Positions 470 to 50,202 of a stretch of DNA of 50,849 nt are shown piece after piece (the stretch's first letter is position 1; each line of letters begins with the position of its first letter). The position numbers and the translations under genes were made by a program. The notes under the pieces were generated by a model that worked only from the letters and a program-made list of their open reading frames with translations, did no database searches and was not told where the DNA came from. The DNA lies in sequence record PP925846.1. One strand, given 5' to 3'. Source of the stretch: Escherichia phage BabyEgg.

Positions 470-733
470 ATGAATAAGGCATTAATGGCGGTTTTTATGG
501 CAACAGCATTCCTGACCGGATGCAATGGTGATGGTGCTTACGTCGATGCACAAATGGCTAACCCTGCCGATACTTACAACGTCAGAAAACTATTTACAGT
601 TGATGGTTGCGATGTGTACAGGTTCAGCGATAGCCGATACGTGTACTTTACCAACTGCCAGGGTAGCGCAAACTGGTCAACTAACGAAGGCAAGTCGGTT
701 AGCCACTACCAGAACACAACAAACGTGAAATAG
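470..733 (+). CDS. putative small lipoprotein (87 aa)
   Basis: N-terminus MNKALMAVFMATAFLTGC = signal peptide plus lipobox L-T-G-C; four further Cys; start moved to the ATG at 470 that overlaps the stop of gene 1. Confidence 0.55.
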   Translation: MNKALMAVFMATAFLTGCNGDGAYVDAQMANPADTYNVRKLFTVDGCDVYRFSDSRYVYFTNCQGSANWSTNEGKSVSHYQNTTNVK

Positions 734-749
734 CACTTTTTGTTAAAAC
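728..749 (+). repeat. 22-bp motif copy AAATAGCACTTTTTGTTAAAAC
   Basis: embeds TAG stop of 470-733; ATAATA 19 bp downstream. Confidence 0.8.
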
Positions 750-827
750 TCGAAAACGATAACCAGGCATAATAAATCACATAGGGCGGCGCGGTGTCGC
801 TCACTAAAACCAATCAGGAGAAATACC

Positions 828-2024
828 ATGTTAAAACTTGCTGACATTAAATTCCCGATCACATTCGAATCTCGCGGCATTGGTCATTACATTTTTACTG
901 ATGAAAAAACATGCCATAAAGTTGATTTGCATAGCTACAAGCGTGCGCCATCAGACATGGAGATTGAACACTTCATTGATGCACATAACAAGCACTACAA
1001 CTCACTTAAAGACTATGGCTATGCAATGCCAGGATATACCAGCTTCCACTACAAGCCATATAAGGGCCAGGTGTTGCCAGTAAAAGAGAACAAGCAATTC
1101 CTGCTGGATAGCGAGGAGATTGTATACCCGATCACCTTTGAAACGGTAGGAAATAGCGTTGTGACTTTCACATCTCGCGACAACGGCACATATGGAAACG
1201 GCTTGAGAACAAGTTATAATGTTGATTACTTCGTCGCCTGTCATAACATGGCTAATCCTAACAACGATAAGAACAAGGTGTACTACGTGCGCGATATTGA
1301 AAGGCAGTGGCCTAAGAAAGACGCCCAGGCAGAGATTCCGATGGTCGAGATGAAAACATGCGACTACAAAAAGCTGTGGTGCTTAAGTGTGGACAATATC
1401 AAGTACCCGATCACGTTCTACACGGCTGGTAATTCAACGATTCGCTTCACATCGCGCGACAATGGCGTTTATAGCGATGGTCAGAAATCAGAGTTGAAAG
1501 TTGATTTCTTTGTTGATGGTCACAATAGATACAATCCACACAACGAAAAAGATAAGGTGTATTACGTGGAAGACATTGCAAAACACATTTTTTCGATTCC
1601 AGATTATTGGAAGATCAACAAGGATGGAGACGCTATTAAAAATAATGGTAAAGCAATTCATGAATTGGTTGATGAACTAAAAACTGCAATTGCTAACGAA
1701 ACGCAGGCGCGAGTTGAGTCTATAAGCGAGCTTCGCGATCAGTTTAAACAGTCATTAGCCGACCGTTGCAAGACTGTACGCGTCGAAAAAGGTGAAGTTG
1801 TTACTATTGGGCGAATTGAGTCCATGCAGCTTACCTCTAAGCTAAAAGGAGTCCAGCTTGATGATGGTACATGGTATGAATTAACGGCTACACCAAAGAC
1901 AATCGAAATTCATGATGATGTTGTTATCCTCCTGCTTCACTATGGCGGCGCAAAAAACCGTACCGTTGCAGGTGAGATCAGCATCAAGCGCGGAACGATG
2001 GTTAAGTGGAAGGTGAAAGTATGA
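828..2024 (+). CDS. hypothetical protein with three tandem ~90-aa internal repeats
   Basis: RBS caggagaaatacc before ATG; repeats begin IKFPITFESRG / IVYPITFETVGNS / IKYPITFYTAGNS, each followed by FTSRDNG...Y(F/V)(V/D)..HN...N..(N/E)KDKVYYV. Confidence 0.7.
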   Translation: MLKLADIKFPITFESRGIGHYIFTDEKTCHKVDLHSYKRAPSDMEIEHFIDAHNKHYNSLKDYGYAMPGYTSFHYKPYKGQVLPVKENKQFLLDSEEIVYPITFETVGNSVVTFTSRDNGTYGNGLRTSYNVDYFVACHNMANPNNDKNKVYYVRDIERQWPKKDAQAEIPMVEMKTCDYKKLWCLSVDNIKYPITFYTAGNSTIRFTSRDNGVYSDGQKSELKVDFFVDGHNRYNPHNEKDKVYYVEDIAKHIFSIPDYWKINKDGDAIKNNGKAIHELVDELKTAIANETQARVESISELRDQFKQSLADRCKTVRVEKGEVVTIGRIESMQLTSKLKGVQLDDGTWYELTATPKTIEIHDDVVILLLHYGGAKNRTVAGEISIKRGTMVKWKVKV

Positions 2025-2224
2025 GCGCCGAATCAATATTCAAGATAATAGCATATTCTATATTCACTGTATTTATCATACTTTTCAGCGTTTGTGGGTA
2101 TTATATATACAAGTCATCACATCTTGAGTGCCACACGACAGGAAAAAAAGTTTATGGCACATACCTTGTCGGAAAGGTCGTAATGGTGGGTTGGTATGAT
2201 GAAACTGTGTGTGTTGAGAAATAG
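2021..2224 (+). CDS. small membrane protein (67 aa)
   Basis: ATGA overlap with the stop of the upstream gene; hydrophobic segment IIAYSIFTVFIILFSVCGYYIY; stop TAG embedded in the 22-bp motif. Confidence 0.45.
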   Translation: MSAESIFKIIAYSIFTVFIILFSVCGYYIYKSSHLECHTTGKKVYGTYLVGKVVMVGWYDETVCVEK

Positions 2225-2240
2225 CACGAATTGTTAAAAC
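2219..2240 (+). repeat. 22-bp motif copy (AAATAGCACGAATTGTTAAAAC)
   Basis: embeds TAG stop at 2222-2224; TATAAT at 2258-2263. Confidence 0.8.
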
Positions 2241-2293
2241 TCAAATGTGGGGCCAGGTATAATGGCCTCACTTTCAACGAAGGAGATAAAACG

Positions 2294-2512
2294 ATGTACA
2301 TTAGCAAGAAGATGAAATGCGTTTCCGTTGGCTATGGTTGCGCTGGCATGTTTAAGCCTGGCGAAATCTATACGGCGCAAAAACTGAAATTATCAATCGG
2401 ATCTTTTTACGTGAGCAATAGCAAGGGGCATCGCATGTTTCTGAACGGTGGTGAAGGAACGAAGGTTATGGCGCACGCTATGGTAATTGCTGAATTTGAG
2501 GAAGTGAAATAA
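2294..2512 (+). CDS. hypothetical protein (72 aa)
   Basis: RBS aaggagataaaacg before ATG at 2294, downstream of motif plus TATAAT (2258-2263); the longer frame start at 2231 would precede the predicted transcription start. Confidence 0.45.
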   Translation: MYISKKMKCVSVGYGCAGMFKPGEIYTAQKLKLSIGSFYVSNSKGHRMFLNGGEGTKVMAHAMVIAEFEEVK

Positions 2513-2694
2513 TGGATGATTTTACTCGGCTTGTTCTCGGCTGGATTGTGTTTCTTTTTGCGTGGCTTATCCACTGTGCGAGATATAAATTCAGACTGAG
2601 CTATGATAATTCATTCGTTATGACCTGCTTCAGTATTCCAGTATGGATCATTTTACTTTTGGCTACTGCTGAATACATCCATAAAACATTTTAA
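2512..2694 (+). CDS. small membrane protein (60 aa)
   Basis: ATG overlaps the upstream stop (TAATGG); two hydrophobic stretches. Confidence 0.4.
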   Translation: MDDFTRLVLGWIVFLFAWLIHCARYKFRLSYDNSFVMTCFSIPVWIILLLATAEYIHKTF

Positions 2695-2704
2695 GGATTA
2701 ATAT

Positions 2705-48844: not shown

Positions 48845-49041
48845 TAGATGATCTCCATGTATGTTTCAAAGCCATTTAACTTGAACAGGCCGTTTTCACA
48901 TTTGCGCACGTTCCAAGTTAGCCCTGAGTGGTAAGCCTCCATATCATCAAGGTCGATGGTGATTTCAGCACCTTTCTTAAACAAACCTTTTTCGTGAGAC
49001 TTGTCGCGCTTAACAACTTTAACATCAACCTGATTTTCCAT
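48844..49041 (-). CDS. hypothetical protein
   Basis: start at the ATG with gagga RBS. Confidence 0.4.
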   Translation of the reverse strand: MENQVDVKVVKRDKSHEKGLFKKGAEITIDLDDMEAYHSGLTWNVRKCENGLFKLNGFETYMEII

Positions 49042-49095
49042 CTTTAAATCCTCGTTTGTTGTCGATGGATGTAATATACCATTCAGGCGCACATC

Positions 49096-49118
49096 GTTTT
49101 TAACAAAAAGTGCTATTT
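49096..49118 (-). repeat. motif copy, minus orientation
   Basis: overlaps the TAA stop of 49117-49383. Confidence 0.75.
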
Positions 49119-49383
49119 AGTCCAGTAATTCGATTTCACGTTCTCCAGTTAACGGATCTACAAGCCAGAATCCGAGCGGTTCACCGTAAACACCGCCATA
49201 GAATCCAAGCGCCGCCAGATCCTCACCTTTAACGAATACCAGGTTTCCGCTACGGCTTACGTGAGACACGTTAACGATAACCGGAAAAGTGCGATCCTTA
49301 AATGCAGGCCGCAGGGCGTAACATCCTTTATTGAGCAAACGTGCTTTGCGCTTTACTGGAATAGGTGCATTGATACGTGCCAT
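49117..49383 (-). CDS. hypothetical protein
   Basis: RBS gggag; ATGA coupling. Confidence 0.45.
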   Translation of the reverse strand: MARINAPIPVKRKARLLNKGCYALRPAFKDRTFPVIVNVSHVSRSGNLVFVKGEDLAALGFYGGVYGEPLGFWLVDPLTGEREIELLD

Positions 49384-49595
49384 CAGTTGATTCTCCCATA
49401 CAGATCGCAAACTTCGTTGATAAAACAGCGTTGCGCCTCTTTATCATGCTTATCAAACATCGCACGGCACTCATAGCGGTGATTATGCACAATGACTACA
49501 ACCATATTTTCCGGCGCTAACGGGTGACGCGCGGACGCGTCGCAGATTGAAACATCCATACCCATTTCATGAGCTTTCTTGATCACATCAAGCAT
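49383..49595 (-). CDS. hypothetical protein
   Basis: RBS aggag before ATG. Confidence 0.4.
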   Translation of the reverse strand: MLDVIKKAHEMGMDVSICDASARHPLAPENMVVVIVHNHRYECRAMFDKHDKEAQRCFINEVCDLYGRIN

Positions 49596-49849
49596 TTTTT
49601 CTTCTCCTGCAATAAGCAAACATCATTGATAAAATCAGCGCGGCCTTTAATGTTGCTGATGTGGAAAGTCTTTTCAGCGTACAGGCCATCACCTTCAATC
49701 ACGATCATTACGCGAGTCGGTTTATTCACGGGCGCACATGAAAAGAGTGGGCGCACCGGAATAAATTTAGTAGTCACATCCAGGTTAGCCCTGGCCGCCC
49801 TGCAAAATGCCTCAGACAGATCTAAATCATTTTCGGTAATCACCGCCAT
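49583..49849 (-). CDS. hypothetical protein
   Basis: RBS gaggag; coupled. Confidence 0.45.
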   Translation of the reverse strand: MAVITENDLDLSEAFCRAARANLDVTTKFIPVRPLFSCAPVNKPTRVMIVIEGDGLYAEKTFHISNIKGRADFINDVCLLQEKKKCLM

Positions 49850-50121
49850 TACTTCTTGATCTCCTCACTGATAAATTTCAGCACCCTGCGCAAGAAAACT
49901 TCGTTGTTGATAGTCGATGGCAATTCTTCTTTCACCTCTTGCGGCAGATAGATATTTCCGTGCCAGGTCAAGCAATCGTAGTTGATACGATAAGAGCAAA
50001 GCCACTCGCAATCGTTATCTGCTTCCCAAATGCAGAGTTGCAGAACATCGCCTAAGTTCTCAACAGTCAGATCCAGGCCGTGACGCTTAGCGAAATTGAA
50101 AGTGGTTTTGCTGATGTTCAT
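49849..50121 (-). CDS. hypothetical protein, first gene of the leftward early operon
   Basis: RBS aggag before ATG; directly downstream of control region B. Confidence 0.5.
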   Translation of the reverse strand: MNISKTTFNFAKRHGLDLTVENLGDVLQLCIWEADNDCEWLCSYRINYDCLTWHGNIYLPQEVKEELPSTINNEVFLRRVLKFISEEIKK

Positions 50122-50180
50122 TTGCTATCTCCTGAGCGGTTTGTTTCGATGTGTGTAATGTACCCGATCAGAATGATTCG

Positions 50181-50202
50181 GTTTTAACAAAAAGTGCTAT
50201 TC
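50181..50202 (-). repeat. motif copy, minus orientation, in control region B with no gene upstream
   Basis: GTTTTAACAAAAAGTGCTATTC on the plus strand. Confidence 0.7.

Follow-up and report, generated by a model that had tools for sequence, protein, structure and literature searches.

We found that the 22-bp element repeated along the genome of Escherichia phage BabyEgg probably marks sigma-70 promoters of early and middle genes that depend on a host activator (MarA, SoxS or Rob), as judged from sequence and spacing. The stretch analyzed (50,849 nt, hereafter the window) comes from a Warwickvirus (Drexlerviridae), a T1-like coliphage with 98.8% identity to phage BEBK14. A first-pass annotation had taken the element for part of a promoter in which an activator might replace the –35, and this is the best reading of the marbox match and the 17–18-bp gap to the –10 that we describe here. 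It had also favored a phage-specific promoter class, which is not supported: the element fits the host marbox at every defined position and has the 18-bp spacing of micF, and no AraC-type activator was found in the phage searches given below.

The repeat is non-random and follows the local genes

When we searched the whole window with AAATAGCACNNNNNGYTAAAAC and allowed up to three mismatches, we found 17 matches where 0.35 are expected by chance, and 100 dinucleotide shuffles of the window never gave more than two; the repeat is thus not random. All 15 near-full copies listed in the first-pass annotation are present to within 2 nt, and each has the orientation of the local genes; its count of at least 18 near-full copies holds as 15 forward plus three inverted ones. 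Among the degenerate copies that had been proposed, those at 31612, 36898 and 25232 are copies, and the first two are genuine variants (GCACAAATAGCTAAA) that have a –10 at the right spacing. The copy at 42883 is doubtful, and two candidates were rejected: 7355 has AATAGCA alone in common with the motif, and 30513 belongs to an ordinary sigma-70 promoter (TTGACT-16-TAAAAT).

As had been noted, the TAG in the motif (positions 4–6) terminates the upstream gene, which we found in 10 copies; the upstream stop is a TAA overlapping the first motif bases in three copies and a TAA at motif positions 17–19 in one. Stop codons are present in two of the three motif reading frames, and this, together with tight gene packing, best explains the overlap.

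Forward copies resemble class II promoters of the host

The candidate promoters, each given with its gap from box to –10 and its –10 hexamer where noted, are the following:

728..773, + strand: class II-type promoter, perfect marbox AAATAGCACTTTTTGTTAAAAC, 18 bp, CATAAT; TAG is the upstream stop; feeds a 398-aa gene (+, start 828)
2219..2263, + strand: class II-type promoter, GAATT-variant marbox, 17 bp, TATAAT; gene start 2294
3397..3442, + strand: class II-type promoter, marbox, 18 bp, TATAGT; gene start 3474
4828..4873, + strand: class II-type promoter, marbox, 18 bp, TATAAT; gene start 4905
6169..6214, + strand: class II-type promoter, marbox, 18 bp, TATTAT; gene start 6245
30072..30116, – strand: class II-type promoter, marbox, 17 bp, TATAGT; 77-aa lipoprotein-like gene, start 30040
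31612..31656, + strand: variant class II-type promoter, GCACAAATAGCTAAA, one mismatch, 17 bp, TATAAT; recombinase gene 31690
36874..36919, – strand: variant class II-type promoter, 15-mer shared with 31612, 18 bp, TATCAT; primase gene
37386..37430, + strand: class II-type promoter; helicase gene, start 37463
39903..39948, + strand: class II-type promoter, marbox, 18 bp, CATAAT; Dam methylase gene 39981
40942..40987, + strand: class II-type promoter, marbox, 18 bp, CATAAT; spacer filled by GC hairpin GCCCG/CGGGC
44300..44345, – strand: class II-type promoter, marbox, 18 bp, TATATT; gene start 44267
46467..46512, – strand: class II-type promoter, marbox, 18 bp, TAACAT; DUF3987 gene 46439
47144..47189, – strand: class II-type promoter, marbox, 18 bp, CATAAT; gene start 47111
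49073..49118, – strand: class II-type promoter, marbox, 18 bp, TATATT; gene start 49041
50157..50202, – strand: class II-type promoter, marbox, 18 bp, TACATT; gene start 50121; first of the leftward early arm
50797..50824, + strand: consensus sigma-70 promoter, TTGACA-16-TATAAT, perfect; reads into the gene at position 1

The –10 at 3397..3442 is flanked by an inverted repeat (GGGCTT/AAGCCC), with a predicted transcription start near 3449, and the –10 at 46467..46512 is enclosed by a 10-bp inverted repeat. The internal TAA of the box at 36874..36919 (–) serves as stop codon for the Cro-like regulator gene, and the box at 37386..37430 also lies directly upstream of this divergent gene. In the sigma-70 promoter at 50797..50824, the spacer holds the A-box half of the motif, AAATAGCAC.

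The distance from the end of the TTGYTA block to the TATAAT-like hexamer is 21–22 bp, as described earlier, and the earlier view that this block is not a –35 was borne out. The would-be –35 position reads AAAACn, with two to three matches to TTGACA. From the motif end, the gap to the hexamer is 17–18 bp in 16 copies, and the start codon follows after 51–59 nt, mostly 54–56 nt. Measured from the box, 12 window copies have an 18-bp gap to the –10 and three a 17-bp gap; across 11 genomes, of the 145 copies with a good –10, 121 have 18 bp, 14 have 17 bp and 7 have 19 bp. A conserved C-A-T-C-G/A-A motif lies at the predicted transcription start, 7–8 nt past the hexamer. Class II sites published for the host are in forward orientation, cluster at –41, have no –35 (1.9 matches to it on average) and retain a canonical –10 (PMC10268841, PMC8811837).

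The published marbox pattern GCAnnwwnTGnnAAA (PMC12052159), the source of which is independent of the phage motif, has 17 perfect matches in the window as compared to 1.1 expected and at most five in 100 shuffles. Each of the 17 is a copy of the motif, and every strong copy fits all specified positions. We built a position matrix from 42 sites in three divergent phages, found with the 22-mer (up to seven mismatches) plus a –10; it is invariant at G6, C7, A8, T13, G15, A18 and A19, and its free positions coincide with n, W or Y of AYnGCACnnWnnRYYAAAYn. MarA and Rob contact the A-box through Arg40 and Trp36 and the T-G-T of the B-box through Arg90, and the invariant phage-box bases are those contacted by these residues (PMC8279559). 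Compared to host marboxes, phage boxes are more uniform, with A5 and T13 invariant where the consensus leaves freedom and position 19 of the 20-mer being A instead of Y. The copies are probably paralogous cassettes, so their uniformity in sequence and spacing may partly reflect descent and not selection.

From these features, we propose that a forward copy would be the upstream half of a class II MarA/SoxS/Rob-type sigma-70 promoter. The 20 bp ATAGCAC-N5-GYTAAAAC would be the marbox, with GCAC as A-box and TGYTAAA as B-box, and a host-supplied monomeric activator bearing two helix-turn-helix motifs would bind it centered near –41. The bound activator would stand in for the –35 and bring RNA polymerase to the TATAAT-like hexamer that lies 18 bp further downstream; we infer that these hexamers are true –10s, that transcripts start where predicted, and that a host activator binds and is required. 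Candidate activators are Rob, MarA or SoxS in E. coli and RamA in Klebsiella, with Rob as a first guess because it is made constitutively. Transcription would start at the A of C-A-T-C-G/A-A, giving a predicted A/C-rich leader of about 24 nt with a Shine-Dalgarno sequence at its end, and the sixteen units would drive early and DNA-metabolism genes on both genome arms.

The cassette is widespread and its activator is not evident in the phage

In the comparison with related Drexlerviridae that the first-pass annotation suggested, the motif is conserved: nine phages with Escherichia, Klebsiella, Enterobacter and Pantoea hosts have 12–20 perfect boxes each, where about one is expected. The box, 18-bp gap and –10 are also found in the podoviruses IME_EC2 (six copies) and C130_2 (eight copies), which have virions unrelated to that of the window, and contigs of ~175 kb, presumed from their size to be T4-like, hold two complete cassettes each. 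No regulator is common to these and the window.

A Pfam scan of the 58 non-structural ORFs gave no AraC-type protein, and the best E-value of a MarA phmmer search against all six-frame ORFs of the window, T1 and mtp20 was 0.76. When we ran MarA by tblastn against 50,697 phage records, including 396 Klebsiella records with a Drexlerviridae-type portal, there was no Klebsiella phage among the matching records and no T1-like phage among the matches listed. The sole recognizable phage regulator is the Cro-like protein with a single helix-turn-helix (36901-37377, – strand), and MotA and AsiA are absent from the general Pfam output for non-structural ORFs.

Alternative explanations

We consider it unlikely that a phage-encoded protein, either the Cro-like regulator or an unrecognized small early protein, binds the box to activate or repress and that the likeness to a marbox is coincidental. 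A dimeric phage protein could read the partial dyad in the box (TAGCA-N5-TGYTA); the box between the divergent regulator and helicase genes is where an autoregulatory operator is expected; the consensus sigma-70 promoter at 50797 could express an unrecognized immediate-early activator; and many early ORFs are without known function. However, the dyad is broken by its flanks (conservation extends to both A3 and A19, and to both C9 and T13), and the recognition helix of the regulator differs among phages in which the motif is invariant. Moreover, IME_EC2 and C130_2 use the cassette with no homologue of this regulator, having DNA-metabolism enzymes alone in common with the window, and the ~175-kb contigs carry only two cassettes each. 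It is very unlikely that all 10 defined marbox positions, and the spacing and orientation of micF with them, would be matched by chance.

The T5 and A4 tracts, located around –43 to –39 and –35 to –32, could suggest instead an A/T-rich sequence like an UP element, read by the RNA polymerase alpha subunits and boosting –35-less promoters with no activator, a likeness remarked on by the authors of the TLS study (PMC11447400). This is quite improbable: UP elements are degenerate and A/T only, whereas G6, C7 and G15 are invariant in 42/42 phage sites, the A/T tract is the variable part (TTTTT, GAATT, AAATT, TAATT), and the pattern of fixed and free positions fits a marbox. Many copies overlap the upstream stop codon, GC hairpins adjoin copies and are sometimes followed by T-rich sequence, and whole cassettes are found in unrelated phages, all of which would suit a role at the level of RNA or of genome structure (as a signal for processing or termination, as a recombination joint of mobile gene cassettes, or as a stoperator roadblock within transcription units, an idea raised for TLS, PMC11447400). 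We regard such a role as highly improbable, since conservation is in the box and not in a structure, the strict 18-bp register to the –10 and fixed start-codon distance are promoter properties, and neither repressor nor integrase was seen in the Pfam output for non-structural ORFs. An RNA-processing site, as the first-pass annotation had offered, is unsupported: an Rfam search gave no match, and the inferred transcription start comes only after the element. Serving as a recombination joint would not conflict with promoter function and is no rival to it.

Inverted and late copies

Copies outside the forward units are the following:

10687..10760, + strand: atypical forward copy at the large terminase stop codon, TATAAT just 4 nt past the box
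15305..15326, – strand: inverted copy preceding the major capsid gene (ATG 15372)
19030..19075, – strand: inverted copy adjoining the RBS of the tape-measure chaperone gene (ATG 19090)
25232..25253, + strand: degenerate copy GCACAAAAGGTAAAA, forward, in the tail fiber J gene leader
35818..35839, + strand: inverted copy adjoining the RBS of the minus-strand tail-fiber gene

At 10687, there is no –10 at 18 bp downstream, and the TATAAT is followed by a terminator hairpin, an RBS and the portal gene; Rtp likewise has a box at the TerL stop codon, and T1 keeps the TATAAT and hairpin without the box. Inverted copies had been said to abut the RBS of late genes, which is so at 19054 and 35818 and not at 15305, where a terminator-like hairpin with a T-run separates box from capsid RBS and ATG. 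On the + strand, the 15305 copy reads GTGCTATCAT, an extended –10 (TGnTATCAT) aimed at the capsid gene; the T1 capsid leader has the same arrangement (GTGCTATTAT), and TLS has an inverted box at the corresponding place. On its own strand, 19030..19075 has the form of a complete class II-type promoter (18 bp, TAGATT), the –10 of which overlaps a sense –10 (TAGAAT) downstream of the tail-gene terminator, and this arrangement is conserved in T1 at 18833 (TAAGAT vs TAAAAT). The 25232 copy lies between a terminator-proximal TATAAT, 11 nt upstream of it, and the ATG, 2 nt downstream, a layout shared with T1. At 35818, the order is terminator, TGcTATTCT, box, AGGAG and ATG, and an inverted box likewise precedes the T1 fiber gene. 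In agreement with the earlier suggestion that function may differ by orientation, copies before late genes probably act differently from forward ones; the inverted and late copies are leader-region sites or make up a predicted antisense promoter, and they may block late genes.

Relation to known systems

Class II promoters of the mar/sox/rob regulon include micF, fumC, lpxC P2 and lpxL P1. E. coli micF has ACAGCACTGAATGTCAAAAC, 18 bp, TAGAAT and then 7 nt to the annotated 5' end, and fumC has a box followed by a 17–19-bp gap. Like these promoters, the phage units have a forward 20-bp marbox over the –35 position, an 18-bp gap, no usable –35 and a near-consensus –10, and the micF box differs from phage copies mainly at positions free in the consensus. 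In contrast, the host has single copies with degenerate boxes, and 50 kb of phage DNA has 15–20 boxes that are nearly identical and close to consensus; every one is joined to a leader of fixed length and often also to a GC hairpin. Binding of the activator is proven at micF and predicted at the phage boxes. The T4 MotA box is centered near –30 and needs two phage proteins, MotA and AsiA (sigma appropriation). The comparison to T4 middle promoters made in the first-pass annotation holds as an analogy, for the architecture, a sigma-70 promoter with a good –10 and an activator box instead of a –35, and not for box sequence, position (about –41, which fits the site of a host factor, vs –30) or likely factor.

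The repeat itself was already published as 21-nt intergenic direct repeats in TLS, noted also in T1, Rtp and Rogue1 (PMC11447400). The TLS consensus, aaATAGCACnnnTTGnTAAAA, with A, T and G subgroups, is the element of the window, and it runs along transcription about 76 nt before start codons, as compared to 22 plus 54–56 nt here. That paper left the function open, proposing a stoperator, enhancer site or UP element, and draws no tie to the marbox or a fixed –10 spacing (PMC11447400), which are what we add. The promoter-early-stem-loop (PeSL) cassettes of T4-type phages, which are mobile regulatory units (PMC2839356), are likewise repeated promoter and hairpin units at gene boundaries, carrying ordinary early sigma-70 promoters whereas those of the window are marbox-type; both are possible gene-shuffling joints, and complete T1-type cassettes occur in unrelated phages.

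In plain medium, laboratory strains support good plating of T1-like phages. Under these conditions, MarA and SoxS are uninduced and Rob is mostly aggregated (PMC10268841), so activator dependence may be partial, or basal Rob may be enough. Taken together, a near-perfect marbox 18 bp from the –10, as in micF, suggests that early genes are most likely driven by host MarA, SoxS or Rob, a kind of promoter already known in a setting that is new.

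Sequence and anatomy of the repeat

When we searched the window for the 22-bp repeat AAATAGCACNNNNNGYTAAAAC, allowing up to 3 mismatches, we found 17 matches as compared to 0.35 expected, and no shuffle contained more than 2. The 15 near-full copies listed in the first-pass annotation are all present and oriented with the local genes, and the three inverted copies that it reported are present as well. Two positions that it had counted as degenerate copies were not recovered: there is no copy at 7355, and 30513 is part of an ordinary promoter (TTGACT-16-TAAAAT). The distance from the motif end to the start codon is 51–59 nt, mostly 54–56 nt. 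As had been noticed, the TAG within the motif is the stop codon of the upstream gene (10 copies); in 3 copies this stop is instead a TAA that overlaps the first bases of the motif, and in 1 it is the TAA of GYTAAA. Because the motif has stop codons in two of its three reading frames, we read this overlap as a side effect of genes packed closely against a sequence that does not vary.

The repeat as such has already been described. Phage TLS, as re-annotated in 2024, has 18 direct repeats of 21 nt between its genes, with the consensus aaATAGCACnnnTTGnTAAAA; they lie along the direction of transcription, about 76 nt ahead of start codons, and were seen in T1, Rtp and Rogue1 as well (PMC11447400). 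The authors suggested that they are stoperators, enhancer sites or UP elements, and counted their function among four open questions on T1-like phages (PMC11447400). The motif in the window shares the consensus aaATAGCACnnnTTGnTAAAA, the orientation and the position about 76 nt before start codons that define these 'DR' repeats; what we add is the reading of the repeat as a marbox.

MarA, SoxS and Rob, activators of the AraC family, bind a site called the marbox, which has the classical consensus AYnGCACnnWnnRYYAAAYn. A 2025 study gives the marbox as 5'-GCAnnwwnTGnnAAA-3' (PMC12052159). The phage motif is asymmetric and consists of GCAC (the A-box), a variable A/T-rich stretch and TGYTAAA (the B-box). 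We found 17 perfect matches to GCAnnwwnTGnnAAA in the window, as compared to 1.1 expected, and no shuffle had more than 5. Every one of the 17 is a copy of the motif, and the TTTTT and GAATT variants both satisfy the pattern. Phage TLS has 19 perfect matches.

We then combined 42 sites of the window, T1 and a Klebsiella Webervirus into a matrix; the sites had been gathered by a loose 22-mer search plus a -10 rather than by the marbox pattern. G6, C7, A8, T13, G15, A18 and A19 are invariant, and A3, T4, C9, T14, T17 and A20 are nearly so. The matrix is free where the classical consensus has n, W or Y, and the phage boxes depart from that consensus systematically at one point, with A rather than Y at base 19 of the 20-mer. 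In MarA and Rob complexes, the A-box, which dominates affinity, is contacted by Arg40 and Trp36, and the T-G-T of the B-box is contacted by Arg90 (PMC8279559). The fixed bases of the matrix are those contacted in these complexes. The uniformity of the copies may be due in part to common descent.

Geometry of the putative promoters and leader

All 16 forward promoter copies point with the downstream gene, and in each the TATAAT-like hexamer that had been reported downstream of the motif begins 17–18 bp from the motif end. Because of this gap, the box is centred at about -40 to -41, as in micF, when reckoned from the inferred transcription start. Among 145 perfect boxes with a good -10 nearby in 11 genomes, 121 have a gap of 18 bp, 14 have one of 17 bp and 7 have one of 19 bp. 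The E. coli K-12 micF promoter has the same layout, with ACAGCACTGAATGTCAAAAC, an identical 18-bp gap, TAGAAT and 7 nt to the annotated MicF 5' end, and in the fumC promoter the box is followed by a gap of 17–19 bp. The -10 hexamers of the phage copies read TATAAT, TATAGT, CATAAT, TATTAT or TATATT, and the -35 position reads AAAACn, which matches TTGACA at 2–3 of 6 bases. The TTGYTA block, at 21–22 bp from the hexamer, is too distant to be a -35 with a long spacer, in agreement with the first-pass annotation. In class II promoters, a forward box overlaps the -35 (PMC12052159); genome-wide mapping in Salmonella places forward sites in a cluster at -41 and shows that these promoters lack a -35 (mean 1.9 matches) and keep a canonical -10 (PMC10268841), and RamA sits at about -41 on micF (PMC8811837). 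By box sequence, forward orientation and position, and a canonical -10 without a -35, the phage copies would thus belong to the class II MarA/SoxS/Rob promoters.

Beyond the hexamer there are 6–7 nt, then a conserved C-A-T-C-G/A-A-(A/C)-A-A-C, an A/C-rich stretch and a Shine-Dalgarno sequence. A transcription start at the A of C-A-T-C-G/A-A fits this arrangement; with this A about 7 nt from the hexamer, examples of predicted starts lie near 3449, 6221, 40994 and 44293 (the last on the minus strand). The fixed-length leader and conserved initial sequence recur in T1, in the Klebsiella Webervirus, in podoviruses and in contigs of about 175 kb.

Leader examples in the window, lying 6–45 nt downstream of the -10
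3443-3473
6215-6244
40988-41019
44299-44268

We also observed that the stretch from the box to the transcription start is enriched in GC-rich inverted repeats, with 14 of 42 sites at p≤0.05 against shuffles, and that T1 and mtp20 (the Klebsiella Webervirus) promoters have them likewise. In some, the arms lie on either side of the -10 hexamer; in others, the spacer is taken up by a hairpin, in many cases one with a GAAA loop, and there the T/A-rich -10 could double as the terminator U-tract of the upstream gene. Stem sequences vary from copy to copy.

GC-rich inverted repeats in the window
3420-3455
31634-31670
36860-36897
40964-40990
44297-44323
46455-46490
47141-47167

Distribution among phages

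Over its first 20 kb, the window shares 98.8% identity with Escherichia phage BEBK14 and 97.6% with phage Jahat_MG145, which is classified in Drexlerviridae, Tempevirinae, Warwickvirus; we therefore read the window as the complete genome, about 50.8 kb long, of a virulent T1-like coliphage. The late structural genes are on the plus strand between about 8.5 and 29.8 kb, and early and DNA-metabolism genes lie on both genome arms. Two very AT-rich non-coding divergent regions, at about 30120-30550 and 50200-50800, have a 57-bp stretch in common (30217-30272 and 50499-50552, 79% identity) and scattered words GCGAACAG or GAGAACAG; they could be origin, packaging or control regions.

Nine Drexlerviridae phages from five subfamilies or genera, with Escherichia, Klebsiella, Enterobacter and Pantoea hosts, carry 12–20 perfect boxes per genome as compared to about 1 expected. 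A scan of IMG/VR for boxes placed 18 bp from a -10 led us to two podoviruses outside Drexlerviridae with P22-like virions, IME_EC2 (Murrayvirus, NC_047742.1; 6 perfect boxes) and C130_2 (Hungariovirus, NC_048067.1; 8 perfect boxes), in which the gap is 18 bp in 12 of 14 boxes and 19 bp in the other 2. All that these podoviruses have in common with the window is helicase, primase, exonuclease VIII, Erf, VRR-NUC and two methyltransferases. Two complete cassettes, including the hairpin and the CATCGAAAC start, are present in each of the IMG/VR contigs of about 175 kb (L050/L051, L070/L071, L074/L075), which from their size are presumably T4-like. That complete T1-type cassettes occur in phages whose virions are unrelated suggests that promoter-plus-gene units have moved horizontally, and it is likely that the box, in addition to its promoter function, is a recombination joint for mobile cassettes.

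About 20 'Campylobacter phage' records (for example MG065649.1 and MG065679.1) name C. jejuni as host and have a portal about 81% identical to that of the window; one, A143, is classified as Hanrivervirus and has 18 marboxes. The host label of these records looks doubtful.

Candidates for the binding factor and alternative explanations

A phage-encoded protein might bind the box, and the partial dyad of the box would suit this, as would the perfect sigma-70 promoter at 50797, which could express an unrecognised early protein. Against it, Pfam detected no AraC-type protein in 58 non-structural ORFs (among the 25 of 35 matched families listed), and a phmmer search with MarA of all six-frame ORFs of the window, T1 and mtp20 gave a best E-value of 0.76. 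When we searched 50,697 phage records with MarA by tblastn, no Klebsiella phage was returned (396 Klebsiella records have a Drexlerviridae-type portal), and there was no T1-like phage among the matches listed. IME_EC2 gp22 matched MarA weakly (E = 0.001) and has no AraC domain by Pfam. A 372-aa protein (window 41532-42650, plus strand), labelled 'sigma 70 region' in Jahat, was rejected as a sigma factor or activator, since it proved to be a DNA repair exonuclease (phrog_704, E = 2.8e-148) whose N-terminus has a weak helix-turn-helix. We recognised only one phage regulator, which is Cro/YdaS-like and has a single helix-turn-helix (phrog_2856). The window, T1, Rtp, TLS and a Pantoea phage differ in the recognition helix of this protein but not in the DNA motif, and IME_EC2 and C130_2 keep the cassette without a homologue of it. 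The case for a phage-encoded binder is thus weakened, and because the motif carriers examined have no candidate phage transcription factor in common, a host factor would be the economical answer.

Other identities for the box were compared as well. UP elements of sigma-70 promoters are degenerate, purely A/T-rich at -40 to -60 and without fixed G/C, which does not describe a box with G6, C7 and G15 invariant in 42/42 sites and an A/T tract as its variable part. Stoperators of the mycobacteriophage L5 type, which are asymmetric repressor sites within the transcription units of a temperate phage, resemble the phage sites in being asymmetric and co-oriented with transcription; however, the phage sites are held at 18 bp from a -10, phages that lack the Cro-like protein retain them, and no repressor or integrase was found by Pfam in the 58 non-structural ORFs (again among the 25 of 35 families listed). 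Sigma-54 promoters have the consensus TGGCAC-N5-TTGCW, with GG at -24 and GC at -12 at fixed spacing and no -10. The phage TAGCAC-N-TTGC resembles this, but the first G is A in 42/42 sites, the TTGC, when present, is 2 nt too close, and a -10 hexamer stands at a fixed 18 bp. T4 middle promoters, to which the element had been likened, have a MotA box centred near -30 and use phage MotA and AsiA; the phage element does not fit this class, as the box sequence differs and its centre is at about -41, and MotA and AsiA are absent from the Pfam output (among the 25 of 35 matched families listed). The idea of an RNA element, also raised earlier, has no support from Rfam, in which no family exceeded the threshold across the whole window. 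The elements are most likely class II marbox promoters that use a host activator of the MarA/SoxS/Rob type.

The motifs that MarA, SoxS, Rob and RamA recognise are almost indistinguishable, and Rob has the highest affinity (PMC10268841). By sequence, any of them could be the activator here. Activator dependence may be partial, because T1-like phages grow well in plain medium, in which levels of MarA and SoxS are low and most Rob is aggregated (PMC10268841).

Late-gene copies and other predicted promoters

Copies near late genes are arranged differently, and the inverted ones cannot be read as class I sites: the box is too near the start codon for a downstream promoter to fit. The inverted copy ahead of the capsid gene is present as described, but it does not adjoin the RBS, and a terminator-like hairpin lies between.

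Copies at late genes and a consensus promoter in the window
10687, terminase stop codon: atypical copy with TATAAT 4 nt away and a terminator hairpin ahead of the portal RBS
15305, capsid gene: inverted copy with an extended -10, GTGCTATCAT, toward the gene, then a hairpin and T-run
19054, tape-measure chaperone gene: box or box-like site in the leader
25232, tail fibre J gene: box or box-like site in the leader
35818, side-fibre gene: box or box-like site in the leader
50797-50824, plus strand, at the end of the window: perfect consensus sigma-70 promoter, TTGACA-16-TATAAT, reading into the DUF7174 gene at position 1

The T1 equivalent of the extended -10 at the capsid gene is GTGCTATTAT. At 19054, 25232 and 35818, the order is terminator, -10-only element (cTGTAGAAT at the chaperone gene, TATAAT at fibre J, TGcTATTCT at the side fibre), box or box-like site and RBS, and T1 has a matching layout at the same three genes. 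Read on its own strand, the inverted box at the chaperone gene is correctly spaced from a -10, which is TAGATT in the window and TAAGAT in T1; the antisense RNA would be predicted to start near 19023 on the minus strand. Because this antisense hexamer and the sense -10 overlap, use of one promoter could exclude use of the other. These arrangements suggest that the same factor may hinder late genes.

Late genes are preceded by an intrinsic terminator and, within about 6 nt, a -10-only cTG-TAnAAT element without a -35, a combination that could be the form that late promoters take in this family. At the portal and capsid genes (window 10709-10760 and 15327-15371), a -10-like hexamer comes first, then a terminator-like hairpin with a T-run, and the RBS last; T1 has the same layout, which recalls a promoter-proximal terminator that needs read-through. 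The spacer of the promoter at 50797 contains the A-box half of the motif, AAATAGCAC, so a marbox-binding protein could lodge there between -35 and -10.

Terminators with -10-only elements
Window: 18995-19035
Window: 23055-23085
Window: 25195-25222
T1: 8330-8362
T1: 18775-18800
T1: 22800-22830
T1: 24985-25010

A possible early-to-late switch, and significance of the marbox reading

A single host activator might serve as both on-switch for early genes and brake on late genes, although we consider this scheme unlikely. The activator would fire 16 early promoters from forward boxes at -41, and would also occupy box-like sites at about +5 to +35 in the chaperone, tail fibre J and side-fibre leaders; at the chaperone gene, it would fire the antisense promoter, with a -10 that overlaps that of the late sense promoter. 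During replication, each new genome would add about 20 high-affinity sites and titrate the activator or, alternatively, unstable MarA/SoxS would decay after host shut-off. In either case, early promoters would fall silent and late promoters would be released. If so, infection efficiency would be tied to the Mar/Sox/Rob stress state of the host, as set by bile salts, salicylate, oxidants or multidrug-resistant mar mutations.

In the open-access and bioRxiv literature, we found nothing relevant beyond the TLS paper on a link between phages and the marbox or MarA/SoxS/Rob, or on Drexlerviridae transcription starts. The marbox reading addresses the published question of what the repeat does (PMC11447400) in a directly testable form. 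If it is true, early transcription in a whole family of virulent enterobacterial phages is coupled to the host regulon for multidrug efflux, porins and oxidative-stress defence, as it is in some unrelated phages with a borrowed cassette. It would supply compact, strong, inducible promoters. It would also link antibiotic-resistance physiology to phage susceptibility and, because tolC is among the known MarA target genes, would be relevant to phage therapy with TolC-dependent phages such as TLS.
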